A stretch of DNA of 64,000 nucleotides. It comes from Atractiella rhizophila. Lineage: Eukaryota. The notes below the pieces were generated by a model, which worked only from the letters and a program-made list of their open reading frames with translations, had not been told where the DNA came from and did not search any database. The stretch is taken from assembly GCA_021432655.1 (NCBI GenBank), contig MU271293.1, positions 1-64,000 on the forward strand. The letters are read 5' to 3'. The translations under genes and the position numbers were made by a program. This document shows, piece after piece, positions 16,519-50,011 of this stretch. Position 1 is the first letter of the stretch, and each line of letters starts with the position of its first letter.

Positions 16519-19500
16519 CTACAGCTCCTCCTTCCTCCTCCGACACAGCTCCTTACACCCCGACACCTTTTCCACCTCCTGGCACATCTCCACCTCCGTC
16601 CTCCACTCCAGCGGTATCTCCCACTGCCCATAACGGCTCCACCGTCCCGCCGGGCCTTCGTCCGTCACGATCCTCACGTGTCTCCTTTCCTTGAACGTTT
16701 CCTCCTCCAACCGATTCTCGAGGTACGACCACAGCCAGAGTGGTCGTAGGTCCATATCTGCAGGTCGTAGGTCGGAGAGGTTGGCAGTGGTATGGTGGAG
16801 ATAATTCGGCTCGAGAAGGGCGAGCGTAGGGCGGGAGAGGGAGAGGCGTTCGAGGTCGATGACGGACCATATGAAGCGTCGGTGGAGCCTCACCCCTCGT
16901 CCCTCTTTCCCATCGCCATTGATGACAGTCAGAGCGCTCAGTACGGGGTTTGCGTCGTCTGTGCCGTCCTCGGGAGAGATGGGAGCGAGCACGTCGGCGA
17001 AGAGGGGCAGGAGGAGAGCGCGGTCGCTTTGGAGAGCGGCAGCGACGAGCAGTTGAACTGTGGATTGGATCTCCGCAGGTGTTCCGGACAGGGAGGCGAT
17101 GGAGAGTATGCGCGGCGGGGAGGAGTAGTAGGATCCAACGTCTTGCCAGTAGCCGTATGTGGCAGCGATGAAGAATTTCAAAAACTAGCTCACCAAATCA
17201 GTCGACTTCCAGCAAAAGATTGCAAAGAGAAGGAGCGCACGGTAGTCTCGCAACAAGTCATATGCAATCCCACGCCTTCTTCCCACACGAACCACCCCAT
17301 ATGTCCACCCCAAAAATACCTAGGCTCGAGCACCCTAACCCTCATCCCATTCCTCCCCGTGAACTCCATCGCCTGCTCCGCCTCGTTTCCGCCTTCCACT
17401 TCTCGTCCAGCTTCCGACTTCAACACGTCATTCACATGGTCTTGATCCCACCCGCCGTCCGCGTCGAGGCGGCGGAGGACTTCGACCCAGAGCGATTTGG
17501 AGAGGGGCGAAGGGGGGTGGCTGAAGAATCCGATGTTGACCCACCGTCTGTGGCCTTCGTTCTGGATCTGCAAATCCCATTTTCCTTCGTCGTCTTCCAT
17601 GATATCCCATGGGTCTCTGTATGATGTATCAATCTTTTTCTTCTTCATAAACAAGAGAGGAAAGAACAAACCTCTTCAGGAAGAAGTCTCCATCGGCAAA
17701 GACCACCCTCCAATCCTCTGCCACCTCCACCAACCCGCTTATCTTAGCTCTAACTGCTCGCCTCATTTGCTCCTCTTTATCCTTCGCCACCTCCTCATAA
17801 TCCTGCAAGAAAGCCCAAACTCCCATCTTTCCACACTGTTCCAGACAACCTTCGTCTAAACACAGAACAAGCAGTTCCTCTCTCCCTCTCCCCGAAGCGT
17901 GTTCGCTGTTCAAGTTGGACAGAAACATCGATAGGTGGGACGTCGCATGGGAAGCATACAATGTATCGGCTACTGTTAGCCACAAAGCATGGGTCCCAAC
18001 TGTCGGGATGTTAATCAATAGCTCAGTCAAATTCGTCCCTCTCATCTGTATCGGCTTGACGCTGTCATTGGGAGACAACGCGAGGGAAGCGTTCCAAGGA
18101 TCGAGGACGGAAGCGATGGGTAGACGGTCACGGAGGTGGGGTGCATGTGGGAGGACGAGGAGGAAGAGATACACCAAGCTCCAAAGCGCCTGAAAGATGA
18201 TTCGTTGCTTCGAGATCGGATCGGGGGAGTGCGAGGAGGCGATGGAACCTGCAGAGCGGGAGCGGGTCATCATCGCCATGCCTTGGGAAGCGGGCGAGGT
18301 GTTGGTGGAGAAGGCGAAGGCTGATACGGGTGTGTTTCCGTCGCTCTCTTCGTTCCATCCACTCGCATCCACGGTGTAGCTCATGCTGTCTTTGCTCCTA
18401 TTCCTCATATGCCCTTGTCCCTGCCCTTGTCCCTGACCTTGAGCAGGGATCGGTGCAAATAATTCCACACTGCTGCTTTGTGAACTCGTTCCTTGATGTC
18501 CTCTCCCACCCATTCCGACACTTCTGAGCCTACTCGATATTTGGGATTGTGTGAAAGGATGGGAACTGCGAGTGAAAGACAGAACGGTTAGTGTGTAGAT
18601 GGTGAAGCTGCCTATGGCGAACCCTGCGACTGAAGCCAAGAAGGAGGAAGAGAGTCGCAGATATGTAAGAATAACGAGCGTCGAGAGCGAAGAGAGGGGA
18701 GGTAGTAGCTGACTGTATCCCAAGTCGGAGAGAGATATATATGTCACTCTTGAAGCCAAGCTGGAAAGAACGTAGGTTCCCATCAAGACGCCGTCATGGA
18801 GGGAAAGGCGAACAATGAAGCCGTGGAGGGACGCGCGTTCGAATGAGAGAGAGAGGAGAAAGGCTGTACATGCTGCCGTCTTCGTTCGCCTCAATTAGCT
18901 TTGTATCCGCGCTATAGCGAAAAAAGATGAGAGGAGCAATCTCACATACAACCGCGCTTCTTCCTCTGAGTCCATCTGCTTTGCTCCACCATACCAGCCC
19001 AAATCCAACGACGCGCATTCCGACGTTGGAAAAGAAGACCTTGAATGCTTCTTGAGAGAGTGAGCTTGGGATTTGGAGGATCAGGAGGGAGATCGCGAGG
19101 AGGGAGAGGCGAGAAAGAGAGGTGGGGAGTGGGAGAGAGTGGACGAGGGACAGAAGCAAGAGGAGAGGAGGCTGTCCCACCAAACATCAGCTTCGTTCGG
19201 CCTCAAACTATTGTCCATCATGATGTGGTCTTATATATATTCACAGATGTTTTGCTAGCAAGCTAAGACCCAATTGCAAGACGAAAAGCAAAAACCCACC
19301 TCAACAGCCAAAATAGCAGCATTTCCCTCCGAACTTGATCCCAAGCTCCACAACGACAGAACAGCGCCAATCCCAGCAAGGAAGCCAGAAACGAGACCCA
19401 ATACACCCTCCGCCTTCTGTTCCACCGCCATGTACACGTCCTTTTGCCTGCTAAAAGCCCATGCAGCCAAAGTAGTTGCCCCAAATAACAGAGCGATTGG

Positions 19501-19647
19501 CACTCCGCCCTCGCTCCCTCCTCCATCCTGTGCCGAAGAGACGGTTGAAGGGCTAGGATAGGAAGATAAGAGCCAGAGTAGGGAGCCTACGCTGGCTGTA
19601 TTGGTTGTGAAGTGGAGGAGGGACGAAGAGACGAGTGGTAAATCCAT
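16519..19647 (-). CDS. Multi-pass membrane protein with C-terminal nucleotide-diphospho-sugar transferase (GT77-like) domain
   Basis: About 10 hydrophobic segments in the N-terminal region, a Ser-rich linker, one more TM, then VLCLD, VVFADGD (DxD), WDLQIQNE..VNIGFF, WDQDHVN and LHMTCC motifs. Confidence 0.72.
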
Positions 19648-20068
19648 TTCTGCCTCCAAAGTCGTCGATCACGGCGAGACGTGTCCAGCGTTTTCGAAAG
19701 CCCACGGTTACAGTGCCGTAGAAAGCATTGGAGAGTGGTCAGGACGTCAGGACGTCAGGGATGAGTGCTCGATGACTTGATTGCTAAACTGCAAAATGTA
19801 GCGTTGATTGTCTGTGGAAAGCGGTCCCGAACAAAATCTATGATGAGCGCGAGATTCATTTCGTAATGGTTAGTCAAGACAAATGCTGCAGCTTAATGCA
19901 AGGAAATTATGTGGGGGTCTGTTTCACTCGTTCGCTGTGTACGAAAAATGAGCATGACAGTCTTGCATCCTAGTTGTATAGCTCCAAAAAGCGTCTGACA
20001 CGAGCGCACAGTAAATGTCCATTCCCTTCCCTCCATCCTACTCTGCTTCCTTACCTACCGGCTCTTCT

Positions 20069-20401
20069 TCAATGCTTATCAGTGTACGGGACCTGGTAAG
20101 GGGACGAGTATGGTCCATCGTCATCAGCCCTCTCCAAATCGTCCTTCTCATCCCCATAATGCTCCTTCCTCTCCCCAGTGACCAATCCGGTCCTGGAGCT
20201 ATTAGCGCCAGGGTTCATAATGGGGTGATAGCTAGGCATGGGACCTGACGGTGTCGCAGGGACGCGATCACCAGAGACGGAGGAACGGGGTTGATTGCCG
20301 AACAAGGTGCTGGTCGGGAAGCCGCGGGAGGTCTGAAGCGCCTTGTAGGAGGTCTCTTCGAGTTGGCGGACGTAGGAACGGGTGATGTGGATGAGGTAGA
20401 A
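20069..20401 (-). pseudogene. Duplicate 3' fragment of the tetraspanin-like gene (probably allelic/assembly copy)
   Basis: Encodes YLIHITRSYVRQLEE...PYTDKH, identical in protein to 21970-22302; cut at the poly-A run. Confidence 0.6.
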
Positions 20402-20428
20402 AAAAAAAAAAAAAAAAAAAAAAAAAAA
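20400..20428. repeat. 29-nt poly-A run at duplication junction (possible masked scaffold gap)
   Basis: A29 sits exactly between the two repeat units. Confidence 0.9.
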
Positions 20429-21556
20429 CACTTCTGAGCCTACTCGATATTTGGGATTGTGTGAAAGGATGGGAACTGCGAGTGAAAGACAGAACGGTTA
20501 GTGTGTAGATGGTGAAGCTGCCCATGGCGAACCCTGTGACTGAAGCCAAGAAGGAGGAAGAGAGTCGCAGGTATGTAAGAATAACGAGCGTTGAGAGTGA
20601 AGAGAGGGGAGGTAGTAGCTGACTGTATCCCAAGTCGGAGAGAGATACATATGTCACTCTTGAAGCCAAGCTGGAAAGAACATAGGTTCCCATCAAAACG
20701 CCGTCATGGAGGGAAAGGCGAAAAATGAAGCTGTTGAGGGATGGCCGCTCGAATGACAGAGAGAGGAGAAAGGCTGTACATGCTGCCGTCTTCGTTCGCC
20801 TCAATTAGCTTTGTATCCGCGCTATAGGGAAAAAAGATGAGAGGAGCAATCTCACATACAACCGCGCTTCTTCCTCTGAGTCCATCTGCTTTGCTCCACC
20901 TTACCAGCCCAAATCCAACGACGCGCATTCCGAAGTTGGAAAAGAAGACCTTGAATGCTTCTTGAGAGAGTGAGCTTGGGATTTGGAGGATCAAGAGGGC
21001 GACAGCGAGGAGGGAGAGACGAGAAAGAGAGGTGGGGAGTGGCAGAGAGTGGACGAGGGAGAGAAGTAACAGGAGAGGAGGCTGCACCACCAAACATCAG
21101 CTTCGTTCGGCCTCAAACTATTGTCCATCATGATATGGTCTTATATATATTCACAGATGTTTTGCTAGCAAGCGAAGACCCAATTGCAAGACAAAGAGCA
21201 AAACCCACCTCAACAGCCAAAATAGCAGCATTTCCCTCCGAACTTGCTCCCAAGCTCCACAACGACAGAACAGCGCCAATCCCAGCAAGGAAGCCAACAA
21301 TGAGACCCAATACACCCTCCACCTTCTGTTCCACAGCCATGTACACGTCCTTTTGCCTGCTAAAAGCCCATGCAGTCAAAGTAATTACCCCAAATAACAG
21401 AGCAATTGGCACTCCGCCCTCGCTTCCTCCTCCATCCTGTGCCGAAGAAACGGTTGAAGGGCGAGCATAAGAAGATAAGAGCCAGAGTAGGGAGCCTACG
21501 CTGGCTGTATTGGTTGTGAAGTGGAGGAGGGACGAAGAGACGAGCGGCAAATCCAT
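20428..21556 (-). pseudogene. Duplicate 5' fragment of the multi-TM/GT77-like gene (probably allelic/assembly copy)
   Basis: MDLPLVSSSLLHF... to ...QISSRLRS, with introns retained and several amino-acid differences from 18518-19647; truncated at the poly-A run. Confidence 0.6.
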
Positions 21557-21969
21557 TTCTGCCTCCAAAGTCGTCGATTACGCGAGACGTGTCCAGCGTT
21601 TTCGAAAGCCCACAGTTACAGTGCCGTAGAAAGCATTGGAGAGTGGTCAGGACGTCAGGGATGAGTACTCGATGACTTGATTGCTAAACTGCAAAATGTA
21701 GCGTTGATTGTCTATGGAAAGCGGTCCCGAACACAGTCTATGATGAGCGCGAGATACTGAACGTAATGGGTTAGTCAAGACAAATGCTGCAGCTTAATGC
21801 AAGGAAATTATGTGGGTGTCTGTTTCACTCGTTCGCTGTGTACGAAAAATGAGCATGACAGTCTTGCATCCTAGTTGTATAGCTACAAAAAGCGTCTGAC
21901 ACGAGCGCACAGTAAAAGTCCATTCCCTTCCGTCCATCCTACTCTGCTTCCTTACCTGCCAGCTCTTCT

Positions 21970-22994
21970 TCAATGCTTATCGGTGTACGGGACCTGGTAA
22001 GGGGACGAGTACGGTCCATCGTCATCAGCCCTCTCCAAATCGTCCTTCTCATCGCCATAATGCTCCTTCCTCTCCCCAGTGACCAATCCGGTCCTGGAGC
22101 TATTAGCGCCAGGGTTCATAATGGGGTGATAGCTAGGCATCGGACCTGACGGTGTAGCAGGGACGCGATCACCAGAGACGGAGGAACGGGGTTGATTGCC
22201 GAACAAGGTGCTGGTCGGGAAGCCGCGGGAGGTTTGAAGCGCCTTGTAGGAGGTCTCTTCGAGTTGTCGGACGTAGGAACGGGTGATGTGGATGAGGTAG
22301 AATTGGATGAAGATTTGGACGATGAAGACGGCGAGGAAGATGTAGCGGTTGGTGGAGGACAGGTCGTGGCAAATGTCGTCGGCATTGTCGACCTTGTCGA
22401 GCGCCTTCAAGCTGCACCACACTCAGCTCTGTACAGATTGCTAAGATGGTGACAAGCACAAAACTTACCAGTCACGTTCGATCTTGTCACGGTTAGTGAA
22501 CAGGAAAACAATGTAGAAGACGCCAGTAGCGATGTAAACTCCCAATTGGTACTTTTCAACCACAAAATGTCAACCACAGCCATATGCCAAGAATGAAAGA
22601 AAATGCTTACAGTTTGAGCCCAAGCAAACGCCTTCACGAGCCGCCTGTTCCTGAAGATGGAGCCGAAGAATCCGAGCAAGGAGAGCAATGAACAGATGGC
22701 AGCGATTGATCCATACACAATTGCTGGTATGAGGATGCTTTTCGGTGGGCTATCCAGACCTGTCACCGACACAAAATGAAACCTTCGCTTGGCGGGTAGG
22801 CAAGCAACGCACGTCGAAGCTGGAAAAATATTCCAAAGGCTGTCAAGGCATTACCCAAGAATCCGAACAGGGATAGGATAAACACTCCAAATCGGACGGG
22901 GAGACTGTTCCATCCCACATTTCCTCTCAACACCGTTTCCATTGATACCAACAAAGGAAGGAGAGGCGCACCAAAACAGAAAGTGTCTACTCAT
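21970..22994 (-). CDS. Tetraspanin-like four-TM membrane protein
   Basis: Spliced start MSRHFLFC|LPVRFGVFILS, LLGFFGSIFRNRRLVKAF, Cys-containing loop (DDICHD), fourth TM YIFLAVFIVQIFIQFYLIHI. Confidence 0.65.
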
Positions 22995-28933: not shown

Positions 28934-30331
28934 ATGCTTTCCCTCTGGTCATCTCCAAGGCTGTCGCTGTCTTTGTTGGGACAAAAGCAGAGACAAGACC
29001 AATAATGTATCATCCAAGCTTCTCCATCATCCGCAGGTGAAGAGTGCCTTCTAAGGGGAACTTTGACCCTGCAAATACCTCGAAGCAGTAGGAGCGTGAG
29101 AGTAGATGCTTCGGAGGTGAAGATACAAAATGTGGCTGAGGTGTTGTGGCCAGACAGAGCGTGGGAGAAGAGAGTACTCTACGACCGAACGGTCACGACA
29201 ATAACGAGAGAAGGAAGTGTTGGAGGAGGAGAAAAGATTTGGGAGTTCCTTATTGCTCTACCCAGTACGGTAGCCACTTCTGAGGAGGGGAAATGGGGAC
29301 GGGTACGACTTGAAGTGTGTTGCTTCTTCTTTCTTGTCAAGGCTATAGCTGAAGACAATTCTTTGATGGGAAAAGATCACAGGCTCGGTATCCTATCAGA
29401 CACCTCTGGGAGTCACTCGCATCGAAAGCACCCTGCCCATCTTCGCAGTGCTCAATCCATATGGCAACGAAGATCCTCGTAGCACCTCGTTGGCAGTTCA
29501 CGACCACACCCCAGACCTCGGAGTGCGCAATTGTTCCTGCTCTTCTTTCGAAAGAGCTTACCATTGGAGGACAGGTGTTTGATGTAAACTATTCTTGTCG
29601 GCTTCTCACAGTCGGCTCTCCTCTCCTCGTCACGTTCTCACTTCCTCACCTTCCGTCCTCCCGCACCGTGCGCATTCAACGCTTGGAAGTTGGAGTCGTG
29701 CAACAGACGACACTGTGTACGAAAGAAGGCAAAGAATCGAAGATGAAGGAGGAAAGGCTCGTACTGTTGGAGATGAACCGGTCTTCGGCTCCTTCCACCG
29801 CGCCTGGTTTTGGGAATGAAAGGATGTTGAAGCTTCGGACGGCGGATGAAGGAGGTGGAAGCGAAGCTTACATTGCGCAGATCGGAGAGGGGGAGCATTG
29901 GAACCATTCTTCGGTCTTTAGGTACATATCCTAATTTTCATGCTCTCTCTCAACACAACAGTTGATCGCAAACCAGGCTTCCAGATCACCACGCCTTATC
30001 TCCATCAACACATCAAACTTCAAGCACACCAATTCGCCACTCTCACTCTCTCGAACTAACGCTCACTTATTCCCTCGCCGCTTGTCCAGAATCTTGGGGT
30101 CAATGGAAGACGCGCCGTCTTGTGAATCGAAAGGAGGTCTTCATCGCTTCCTGCCGGTTGAGAGAAGAAGATGTGAGCTTACCTGCTTACGACAGCATCC
30201 TGCCTGCTAGTGAATGTGGTCGTAGATGGAATGTGGGGTGTGTTTGTGAGATGAAGGCTGAGGAGTGGGATAGTTCGAACATGGACCATGGGATGGAAGG
30301 TGTGGACAGACCCAAGTGGGAGGTTATGTAA
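28934..30331 (+). CDS. Arrestin-fold (alpha-arrestin-like) protein, subfamily A, with in-frame TAA at codon 24
   Basis: Four exons splice cleanly; LLRGTL, NVAEV, WEFLIALP..GKWGRVR, LTVGS, PST...TPIRHSH, LPAY, CVC, RPKWE. Only lesion found: TAA at 29003-29005. Confidence 0.75.
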
Positions 30332-30763: not shown

Positions 30764-36815
<6,052 letters not shown>

Positions 36816-46738: not shown

Positions 46739-47428
46739 ATCGTTAGTCTCCCTGATCAAAATTGTCGCGCTGACAGAGAAAGCGAATCGTGGTAGGGTGG
46801 GTTTTCTTCCTTCAATGCCGAGTCAGATGTATTGATGACGGAACGGTGCGGCTTTGTGGCGTCTTCGCTCAAAGCTTTTCAACATCGCGTTATATTAAGC
46901 ACATCGTTCTTCTTGCTTCTCCGTTTAAGTTATGTAGCTGCTTTGAGGTTCTCCCTGAGCATGCCTCAATAGGTGTGAAGGTTTGGCTTGCGAAGACTGC
47001 TCTCGTGCATTTTAATCCGTCACTTTGTGCAGTGTCTAATACCATTATGTACAAGGTTGCAACTCTGACACAACTTCTCAATAACAAGCACTATTATCTC
47101 CAGCGCTATCATGCGCCACAACTGTGCTACTGGTTTGTTCGCACGTTTGAACTTCCGTTGGCCAAGAAGATACGATTTGTAAAATTCAGAACAAACGGAA
47201 CCAAACGAAACAAGAACGTGTTTTCCCACCTGACACAGTAAATAAATGTCTGACGTCTCCATCCTCCATCCAACGCAGCATTCAGTTCTCAAGGCACTTA
47301 AGTCTGGCATCTTCTTGAAAGGCTGACCTGGCACTTAGAGACCATATTAATTGTGTAACCTGCATCAGAACGTGGATAGATTCATTCTCAGTCAATTCAT
47401 CCCATATAACACACAAATCACTGTTTAG

Positions 47429-48856
47429 CTATTCATCTTCCCATTTCGCTCTCATCCTTCCTCCGTCCCTTCCATGCATTATGCTTTGTTGCACTTGCTC
47501 CTTTTCCATGGCACATGCGCAGGCACAAGTGGTCGTTCCTATCAGTTCTCCGTTCCTGTCGTGCGGAGGGAATCTGGAATAAGGAGGCAAAGTCAAGATG
47601 CTCTCGCTCAATCGACACGAAGCGAGAAAACACTCTTTCTTGTTGACCAGACGGCGCGTTTTCCATTCTTCCGTTCCTCCTCTCTGAGACGTCAAGATCG
47701 AGTAGGTGAGCCTGAGTTCGAAAGCGTGAGACAGACGGATTGGCGTGACTGTATTGGCGTGCGTGGAGGGTGAAAGGCTATCGTGCCTTGAGAGCCTGTA
47801 GTTGGACTAATATTAGAGAAGTAAAACCGAACAATAGGAAACTACGCACTGGACAACACGACTATATTCCCATTCTTCTCCTTCCGCAAGCAAGGCGATT
47901 GCTCCGCAGCCCATCCCATCCCTCTTCCTCCCAATTCCAAGGCCCTGCCCGATCCTACTCCCGCCTGGAGTAGATGCAGGCGATACACATTTATTCTCGA
48001 TTAGGACGAAGCGATCTTCTGTCTTCTCCTTTCCCTCTCCGTCCACGCTTTCCAGCACCACTTGTTGCAAGAGAGCAAGAGTCAAAGTCTCGATGCGAAC
48101 CCTCGCTCTTATTCCGTCAACGGTCCTGGGAAGGCACGGGAGTTTGAAAGCGAAAAGAATACAGGATCCAACGGTGAGATTAGGAGATGAATAGGTTACG
48201 TTGAAAACCTATAGAATGAACGATCAGTCACATTGTCCAGCAGAACAGGTCATTGCTCACCCCCAAATCATCAGTGTGATCCGTGACAAATGTTAAAGAC
48301 GCTGGTACAGCCTCTCCGTGCGGATGAGGATTGACGATCGCATGAAGAGGAAGGCCAACGTCAATGCGGGCTTCGCCGAAGGGACCTTCATACGAAGCAC
48401 TCGCGGTGATCTGTTTATTACATTGTTGCACTCATCAGTTCCAGTTCCATAGATGCATGAAAAGGTATAACTCACCTCCAGCCTCACACGTCCCCATCTC
48501 CCATCTTCGCTTGCCGCCAAATTCGCAGGCAGCGCGAAAATGAACTCAAAACCATGTCTTCCTCCCAATTCCACCCCACCTGCGCCATCCCACTTGATGT
48601 TCCTCTCATAGAGGACCCTTCTTTCCCACGCCTTCTCGGAGAACAAGACCTCCGCTACGTTCTTCACAGCGAGCTGAACGCCATGAACTTTCTTTTGCTT
48701 TCCCAGAAAAGACAGCAAAAGTGTTCCACGGAGGAGTGTTTCTTCACAAGCAGACGATGGAAGAGGGTGCAGGATCGTTAATCCTCACCCGTGCGCCATG
48801 TTGGATTGATTGAGGAGAGAAATGGACAGTTGAGGAGGCGAGAATAGCGCGTGCAT
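47429..48856 (-). CDS. Arrestin-fold protein, subfamily A, with in-frame TGA at codon 24
   Basis: Same three intron positions as 28934-30331; LLRGTL, NVAEV, FEFIFALP..GRWGRVRLE, LTVGS, WKTRRLVN, LPPY, CAC, RAKWE. Only lesion found: TGA at 48787-48785. Confidence 0.75.
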
Positions 48857-50011
48857 ATTCGCTCGTTTTCAGTCTTCGAGTGCTTGTTAGGTGAGGCTGA
48901 CGAACGTCAAGGTAAGCGACAAGGCTTTTTTATGCCTGTACATGGGGAGTCTGCTCGACTCAGCCAAATGACAAAGCAGCCTCTTGACCCCACAGCGTCC
49001 CACCTGACAGAACATTCTATGCACCACTCCAAGGATTGCAAGAACAAACCCACACGCAGCCGCACAGGAATGGAGCTTGAGCCGGTCTGACAAATTTCTG
49101 CATTTCATTTGTTTGCCACCAGCTTTCGTCATCATGAAGGGGATGGGGATAGAGATGAGAAATATGGCTTCATGGAAACGAACCTTAAACCGAGTTGAAT
49201 CACAAGAAATATGCCTTTGAGGCAAGGGAAGGCGTTCTTAGCGAGTTATGGGGGGACGTGATTGGTAGGCCGAGGTGGTGATCATGCATTGGGTTATGCT
49301 TGAAAATGAAATCTCCATTTGGTCGAGATTTCTTCACAATTAAAGATGCGTCCTGGTATGATAAATATTCTTTTCTGCCACTAAGGCTGCTAAGGTCCTA
49401 AATCCTGCCAAGAAGCGTAGGTTGGTGATCACCAAAATTATGGCAATGAACTTCGGACAATTATTACCAGCGGGAACAAATTGCAAACTGCAGCCTGTAG
49501 CATTCAAGTTACCAATTTGTTAAGCGATCTTATCACCTCAATACCAGTCAAGATCTGCTCAAGACCAACCCTTTCAAGATAGGGAGGTGTCTTGTAGACG
49601 CGTGGTCTGGGTATGAAAGCGCTTTGATTGAGACTTATTTGGGTTCAATGATGACCTTCTGCGGCCGAGCAGGACTACTAATACGACATCTCAAGCGAAA
49701 AGTGGTAACGTTGATAGCCGGGAACTGCTTCCCGGACATTCTTGCTGCTTCAACAGTTTCTGGCTCCGCACAGAAATAACACTGTTGTGGTAGCGTAACT
49801 AGTATTTGTGGGTCCTTCGACTTTCGTTGCCCAGCAGTTCCTTTAGGACCATCAGTTGTCGAATAACCGGTAGCAGCCGGTATGAGTAGGCGAAGTGGAG
49901 GGTAGCAGGTATACAAAAAGTCATGGAAGACACATTTTGTCATGAAAGGGTGAACTCTTCGGGTTCTCTTTTCACCGGACACACTCGTTGCAAGCCAAAA
50001 AGGGAGACAAC

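Follow-up and report, generated by a model that had tools for sequence, protein, structure and literature searches.

An in-frame stop at codon 24 shared by two sister arrestin-like genes of Atractiella rhizophila

An arrestin-like gene of Atractiella rhizophila, here called gene E, opens with an ATG, meets an in-frame TGA at codon 24, and then continues in the frame of that ATG for approximately 395 open codons distributed over four exons. A sister copy, gene D, carries a different stop triplet at the same codon number. The question raised by this locus is whether the early stop is a lesion or a retained part of the gene and, if it is retained, how the protein encoded behind it could be made. 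We addressed it in the window, i.e., the whole stretch of 64,000 nucleotides analyzed here (contig MU271293.1 of assembly GCA_021432655.1, positions 1 to 64,000 of the forward strand), together with assembled RNA contigs, public gene models, homologue searches, and structure models.

Layout of genes E and D and their relatives

The exon model of gene E comprises the following features:

47429..48856, minus strand: gene E, arrestin-like (exons 48856-48476, 48410-48261, 48208-47850, and 47795-47429)
48788..48856, minus strand: start codon and 23 codons before the stop, modeled as the family N-terminus (short helix plus beta-strand 1)
48785..48787, minus strand: in-frame TGA at codon 24, seen in the sequence and in RNA contigs
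48765..48790, minus strand: predicted hairpin of 11 bp whose 5' arm (stem) contains the UGA; z score of -4.44 for the 111-nt fold
48476..48784, minus strand: remainder of exon 1, open in the frame of the ATG and without an in-frame ATG
48411..48475, minus strand: intron 1, 65 nt, GT..AG, RNA joint in three of four runs
48209..48260, minus strand: intron 2, 52 nt, RNA joint in four of four runs
47796..47849, minus strand: intron 3, 54 nt, RNA joint in four of four runs
47579..47590, minus strand: LPPY, an LPxY (PY-type) motif at residue 366, with coordinates converted from the exon model

Gene E starts with the ATG at 48856-48854 on the minus strand and contains 418 sense codons, codon 24 included, before its final TAG. 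An earlier note, made from the letters alone, had placed the start at 48856 and the TGA at 48787-48785 with the frame continuing beyond it. The sequence bears this out, the frame being open to 48476, and a GT donor directly after this position closes exon 1. The listed open reading frame at 48293-48718, which the same note described as starting at a near-cognate codon, does so with TTG. Upstream of the ATG, an in-frame TGA is located 15 nt away and no in-frame ATG lies between the two. Short GT..AG introns of the fungal type occur across the window.

The TGA of gene E had been described as the second instance of a codon-24 stop in this family. This was correct, with the first instance being the TAA of gene D:

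28934..30331, plus strand: gene D, sister paralogue of gene E (exons 28934-29314, 29376-29522, 29575-29921, and 29977-30331)
29003..29005, plus strand: in-frame TAA at codon 24, from the sequence, overlapping an out-of-frame ATG (TAATG)
30179..30190, plus strand: LPAY, an LPxY motif at residue 360

Gene D begins with the ATG at 28934-28936 and comprises 409 sense codons, again including codon 24. Its introns of 61, 52, and 55 nt match the three introns of gene E in position and phase, and its first exon past the stop is likewise free of in-frame ATGs. The two stops lie at the same codon when numbered from the ATG. The MAFFT alignment sets a 2-residue gap before the stop of gene D, which leaves the stops two columns apart. 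A 2-residue indel near the stops cannot be placed, and the exact positional homology of the two stops is likely, although not proven. The frame opened by the TAATG of gene D (29003-29007) ends after 11 codons unless a 52-nt candidate intron is used. The TAATG pentamer resembles the stop-restart signals of some fungal viruses.

Five arrestin-like genes are found within approximately 22 kb of the window (28.9 to 51.4 kb), with starts near 28.9, 43.4, 46.8, 48.9, and 50.0 kb. The early stop is confined to genes D and E among these five, and for the copies starting at approximately 43.4 and 46.8 kb, the annotation gives complete proteins. Against the Pfam family Arrestin_N (PF00339), exon 1 of gene E scored 20.5 bits and exon 1 of gene D scored 20.8 bits, both below the gathering score of 24.9. 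The annotated protein of gene E (P0001) also remained below the cutoff, at 18.3 bits. Among the seven proteins scanned, three homologues (P0005, P0006, and P0010) passed at 33.5 to 35.7 bits, and P0001 matched these three by phmmer at 2.4e-20, 1.1e-17, and 1.1e-14, respectively. Genes D and E are clearly homologous to proteins of other Pucciniomycotina (Rhodosporidiobolus, Sporobolomyces, and Meredithblackwellia).

A HMMER search of 1.84 billion representatives returned 113 proteins at E <= 0.001. Apart from the public models of D and E themselves, no homologue in this search exceeded 33% identity. A word-indexed protein search confirmed 1 of 851 candidates, the record of gene E itself. When metagenomes were scanned with protein patterns, none of the 209 pattern matches was confirmed by tblastn; both peptide patterns are altered by variants in some haplotypes, so that variants of E could have been missed. 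The exact DNA pattern around the stop of E had no match in metagenomes.

Spliced RNA across the stop and the public gene models

Logan contigs of four runs (X1, X3, X19, and X20) were aligned to positions 47400-49000. Only X3 is recorded as RNA, yet exon-exon joints located exactly at the introns of gene E were present in all four runs, which therefore derive from spliced RNA. The contigs differed from the window at 1 to 3% of letters and thus represent other strains or alleles. The X19 contig (1,844 nt) was unbroken over 48476-49000 and further, and the X20 contig was unbroken over 48476-48889. The X3 contig, unbroken over 48490-48802, stops 15 nt past the TGA and therefore counts for little, and the X1 contig ends at 48565, short of the stop. 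In the contigs of the runs covering the span between 48476 and 49000, no joint was found within it, and no alternative letter at 48785-48787 was reported in X19 or X20 (nor, marginally, in X3). The codon-24 stop of gene E is retained in mature spliced mRNA, and production of the full protein would require ribosomes to pass it. It should be noted that contigs drop rare variants, so that a minor edited or spliced form could escape a contig-based check.

Two findings would have spoken against the earlier note by its own account: a dominant mRNA from which an in-frame splice removes the stop, or a gene that is silent and decaying. Neither was seen. The assembled transcripts contained no such splice, and gene E is transcribed with its introns correctly spliced. 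A sequencing or assembly error at the TGA was rejected because contigs of other runs carry the identical triplet, which is common to haplotypes 1 to 3% diverged from the window. Of the 39 strain differences listed for gene E, 25 were nonsynonymous and 14 were synonymous, and there was neither a nonsense change nor an indel. The ratio of 25:14 departs only weakly from neutrality (P = 0.06 to 0.26). The sole variant listed in the first 23 codons was found in X19 at position 48798, where the in-frame ATG at codon 20 is changed to AAG (Met to Lys).

The RNA contigs also reach upstream of the start codon. The X19 contig extends 417 nt past 49000, i.e., over 48857-49417 and beyond, upstream of gene E on the minus strand. 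It would imply a leader of more than 500 nt with up to 10 upstream ATGs, including that of an in-frame 18-codon open reading frame from 48943. The X20 contig ends at 48889, approximately 40 nt below the TATA-like CATAAAAAAG. This upstream RNA may belong either to an extended leader of gene E or to a different transcript that overlaps it.

Several splice events that might remove the stops were considered on the sequences. The hexamer GTGAGG, which overlaps the stop of gene E and had been noted as donor-like, is followed by the next AG (beyond the hexamer's own, by hand count) after 47 nt, as previously stated. This is not a multiple of 3, and the candidate was rejected as out of frame. A 50-nt GT..AG candidate in gene E, inspected by eye, was rejected since it yields no frame started by an ATG. 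The GTs in the first 23 codons of gene D, also judged by eye, are all in phases that misfit the CAG acceptor. The distance from codon 18 to the conserved block downstream of the stop amounts to 39 to 45 nt, compared to 52 to 65 nt for the real introns, so that an in-frame intron does not fit.

These observations bear on the proposal that repair at the RNA level, through editing or an infrequent alternative splice, eliminates the stop from a minor share of transcripts or from stage-specific ones, which we consider very unlikely. A minor form of this kind could be lost from contigs, and gene D does contain a 52-nt GT..AG candidate intron (29037-29088) that is used by its public model. Premature stops retained in Fusarium are reported to be corrected by stage-specific A-to-I editing (PMC10776026). 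However, the contigs covering the stop of E held neither an altered letter nor an additional joint, the space before the conserved block is too short for an in-frame intron, and the candidate intron of D would delete the conserved EE-LLRGTL block. According to PMC11156358, fungal A-to-I editing prefers a U at position -1 and hairpin loops, an edited UAA becomes UGA and is still a stop, and editing reports in Basidiomycetes were judged to be artifacts. The UGA of gene E has a G at -1 and is predicted to lie in a stem, and the stop of gene D is UAA; neither has the features of an editing target.

The public gene models of this locus avoid the stops by other means. Gene E is represented by NCBI KAH8924524.1 ('hypothetical protein BT69DRAFT_1349389 [Atractiella rhizophila]'), in which exons 2 to 4 are identical to those of our model. 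This record could be reproduced exactly by starting at the ATG at 48943 and removing a 32-nt 'intron' (48905-48874) and a 58-nt 'intron' (48755-48698). The two mini-introns change the frame around the TGA, and 20 residues, including the conserved EE-LLRGTL block, are lost. We rejected both, as the RNA contigs run through them and the conserved block would be lost. The public annotation divides gene D between two records, KAH8924517.1 (partial) and KAH8924518.1, although its exons join into one 409-codon gene with the intron pattern of E. KAH8924517.1 starts at the out-of-frame ATG overlapping the TAA and uses the 52-nt intron at 29037-29088, which was again reproduced exactly. This intron was rejected on conservation, since it removes the EE-LLRGTL block of the PSSA-EE-LLRGTL region. 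The public models of both genes are workarounds that avoid the stops via frame-hopping introns, and early-stop genes such as D and E stay hidden in automatic annotation.

Age of the shared stop

Genes D and E share 45% amino acid identity and form a sister clade with an SH-aLRT value of 100 in a quick tree, the careful search being unfinished. Over the whole gene, pS was 0.77 (saturated), pN was 0.39, and identity at third positions was 33%, with the four exons behaving alike. Codons 1 to 17 gave a pS of 0.77 and a pN of 0.34, and identities at the first, second, and third codon positions were 10/17, 13/17, and 5/17, respectively. The amino acid identity of this segment was 10/17 in frame 0 versus 4/16 and 3/16 in the other two frames. 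Codons 18 to 23 are free to vary (pN of 0.73), and the PSSA-EE-LLRGTL block begins 7 to 9 codons past the stop, with most of its conserved residues showing synonymous differences. Coding constraint on both flanks of the stop argues that one frame is translated on either side of it.

In a neutral, substitution-only simulation with 25% change, the frame behind the stop stayed open in 0 of 5,000 runs. Together with the saturated pS and the low pN, this indicates that the downstream frame has long been under selection. Because selection has acted on the frame during most of the period after the duplication, a single ancestral dead gene that was copied later is ruled out. At 2% change, the frame was still open in 1,922 of 5,000 neutral runs (38%), so that the lack of further lesions among strains says little. 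If each gene had received one random nonsense hit, the probability of both falling on the same codon number would be 0.0036 (0.013 within ±2 codons). Given a coincidence of approximately 0.004, the stop is most likely ancestral and kept by selection. Judged from the sequences, it would date from the common ancestor of D and E and would have been inherited rather than hit twice.

The earlier note had suggested that either the stop itself or the 23-codon length is conserved, and this was upheld in part. It agrees with the sister relationship of the two genes, the saturation of their synonymous sites, their integrity apart from the stop, and the coding-like pattern of codons 1 to 17. Its reach is limited by the fact that it concerns two genes of one species only and that the alignment near the stop is ambiguous by two codons.

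The coincidence value also weighs against reading D and E as twin transcribed pseudogenes that were hit recently and independently and match in codon number by chance. Each stop is one common C-to-T transition away from a sense codon, CAA to TAA in a glutamine-rich loop of D and CGA to TGA at a CpG in E, and the recent variants of E are not clearly different from neutral in their N:S ratio. The informative value of intact strains is much reduced by the neutral simulation at 2%, and the long stem of the D and E clade, the two-column offset in the MAFFT alignment, and stop contexts that are not known to be leaky (see below) all point in the same direction. On the other hand, each gene carries exactly one lesion and is otherwise intact, and pN has remained far below pS over the long term. 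The stop of E was kept across the diverged haplotypes with 0 of 39 differences being nonsense or indel, and a dead gene would have to be transcribed with three correctly spliced introns. Overall, a pair of pseudogenes appears unlikely to us. The stem branch leading to D and E is very long (2.18 changes per site), which fits a relaxed or changed constraint.

Protein fold and passage past the stop

To place the stop on the protein, an AlphaFold model of exon 1 of gene E was built with the TGA read as W. It had a pLDDT of 85.2 and a strand at residues 9 to 14, and its best match was the N-lobe of the human alpha-arrestin ARRDC3 (4r7x; E value of 2.3e-4, TM score of 0.59), followed by TXNIP and VPS26. 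The model of the uninterrupted full-length homologue P0005 (pLDDT of 87.8) has a strand at residues 10 to 15 and a turn at 16 to 18. It matched ARRD-6 of Caenorhabditis elegans (7usy_J; E value of 6.7e-15), VPS26, and beta-arrestins within a range of 1e-11 to 7e-15. On the basis of these two models, the family is predicted to adopt the two-lobed beta-sandwich fold of arrestins. Codons 1 to 17 carry the N-terminal P-x-L-x-x-x-L motif of the family, and in the models of E exon 1 and P0005 this segment folds into a short helix followed by the first beta-strand of the arrestin N-lobe. The stop falls in the turn behind that strand, which is 6 to 8 residues longer in D and E than in relatives and has low model confidence. 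Near the C-terminus, each protein has one LPxY motif (LPAY in D and LPPY in E) that aligns with the conserved LP-x-Y of the family. By sequence, these resemble PY-type motifs and may be putative binding sites for a Nedd4/Rsp5-type ligase.

Fungal ARTs (arrestin-related trafficking adaptors) are the alpha-arrestin group for comparison. The fold matches of the exon 1 and P0005 models are to alpha-arrestins (ARRDC3, TXNIP, and ARRD-6), with which D and E share the LPxY motif. They differ from typical alpha-arrestins in scoring below the Arrestin_N cutoff and in their very long branch.

Based on the continuous frame, the structural role of the N-terminal peptide in the fold, and the location of the stop in a disordered turn, we favor low-level readthrough of the codon-24 stop, an explanation that is plausible but held tentatively. 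Initiation would take place at the conserved AUG, and most ribosomes would release a peptide of 23 residues at the stop. A small fraction would pass the stop by means of a near-cognate tRNA and stay in frame, and the product would be a full-length, two-lobed alpha-arrestin-like adaptor with its LPxY motif. Any residue inserted at the stop should be tolerated, since it would fall in the extended, low-confidence turn. In this way, the stop could serve to throttle or gate the translation of an arrestin-like adaptor.

The surroundings of the stops offer little that would promote such readthrough. UAA is generally the tightest stop. The contexts are UGA GGA in E and UAA UGU in D, neither of which is a known leaky context, and no nucleotide motif common to the flanks of the two stops was found. 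The hairpin predicted over the UGA of E has no counterpart at the stop of D (z score of -0.20), and no RNA structure was common to both genes. As given in PMC4207609, the basidiomycete readthrough motif is UGA CU(A G). With nonleaky contexts and no common sequence, readthrough is expected at the basal level unless an unknown factor acts. Selenocysteine insertion was rejected because the stop of D is TAA. No tRNA gene was found within the window.

Conservation of both the 23-codon length and the peptide encoded by codons 1 to 17 also fits an upstream open reading frame with a conserved peptide. In that case, ribosomes would restart at a near-cognate codon behind the stop (ACG, AUC, or CUG in E and AUC AUC in D) and make an arrestin that is devoid of beta-strand 1. 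Short open reading frames favor reinitiation, an in-frame ATC lies no more than 4 codons from the stop in both genes, and a leaky context would be unnecessary. However, AUC initiates very poorly, and D and E have no near-cognate codon in common at an aligned position. Constraint returns 7 to 9 codons after the stop and leaves a very short window for the restart. The conserved peptide corresponds to the helix and strand 1 of the family, which belong to the fold of uninterrupted relatives, and its conservation is most easily explained if it remains joined to the downstream part of the protein. The fungal arginine attenuator peptide is encoded by a conserved-peptide upstream open reading frame of approximately 24 codons ahead of a main coding region. 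In such systems the main open reading frame has its own AUG, whereas the main frame of D and E is a continuation of the short one, the remainder of exon 1 is free of in-frame AUGs, and the peptide is the N-terminus of the family itself. Taken together, translation by restart strikes us as an improbable source of the protein.

A further option would be hopping, with the peptidyl-tRNA skipping the stop and landing on a matching codon, from GGG across UGA to GGA in E and from CAA across UAA and three further codons to CAA in D. Synonymous take-off and landing codons flank both stops, the stop of E is predicted to lie in a hairpin, and the process would resemble the bypassing in gene 60 of phage T4. 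We know of no efficient hopping by cytoplasmic ribosomes of fungi. Moreover, it is not unusual for matching codons to occur within a few positions of each other, and the products of D and E would differ in the region of strand 2. Hopping is therefore regarded as extremely improbable.

Extending the readthrough explanation, an ancient start-proximal stop, regardless of which triplet it is, may serve as a built-in gate, with the adaptor being made in proportion to termination failure. We regard this extension as rather doubtful. If it were true, the level of the adaptor would report or respond to termination efficiency, e.g., under stress, release-factor limitation, or in a prion-like state. It would also define a class of cellular recoding that works independently of a leaky-context signal and places nearly the whole protein behind the stop.

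Systems with partially similar features have been described in other fungi and in animals. As in D and E, the readthrough isoforms of metabolic enzymes in Ustilago maydis, also a basidiomycete, and in animals have an in-frame stop between coding stretches of the same frame (PMC4207609). These isoforms involve the normal C-terminal stop, a short extension with a peroxisome signal, and the UGA CU(A G) context. D and E differ from these isoforms in that the stop is at codon 24 with approximately 95% of the protein behind it, is a TAA or TGA, and has no such context. The stop between gag and pol of Tf1/sushi elements in fission yeast is likewise conserved among related copies and keeps the downstream product low (PMC10085805). 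It lies in a strictly conserved 8-nt context (GAA TGA CT), whereas D and E have no nucleotide context in common. Premature-stop 'pseudogenes' of Fusarium graminearum (PMC10776026 and PMC11156358) combine selected stops in otherwise intact genes with a full protein that is made conditionally. There, UAG is edited in sexual tissue of filamentous ascomycetes, whereas D and E are basidiomycete genes with UAA and UGA, and the contigs of E showed no edited form.

Within the terms searched, no literature report was found that dealt with genes D and E or described an early stop conserved in an arrestin gene. The conserved cellular cases available for comparison, among them those of PMC4207609, add short C-terminal extensions, while here approximately 95% of a folded protein follows the stop. 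The arrangement has outlasted a duplication whose age was sufficient for synonymous sites to become saturated. If the stop is functional, D and E would offer a natural system in which to study readthrough or restart that does not depend on context, and the reasons for throttling a trafficking adaptor. If it is not, they form an unusual pair of parallel nonsense hits at one codon.

In addition to the arrestin-like genes, the window contains two tandem duplications. The region at 30766-34400 is a tandem repeat with a period of 1,941 nt. The 300-nt copies reported for it are 100% identical, and it holds identical open reading frames at 31029-32432 and 32970-34373. It represents either a very recent duplication or an assembly artifact. 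The second tandem duplication, at 18518-22068, has a period of approximately 1.9 kb, 95 to 97% identity, and paralogous open reading frames.
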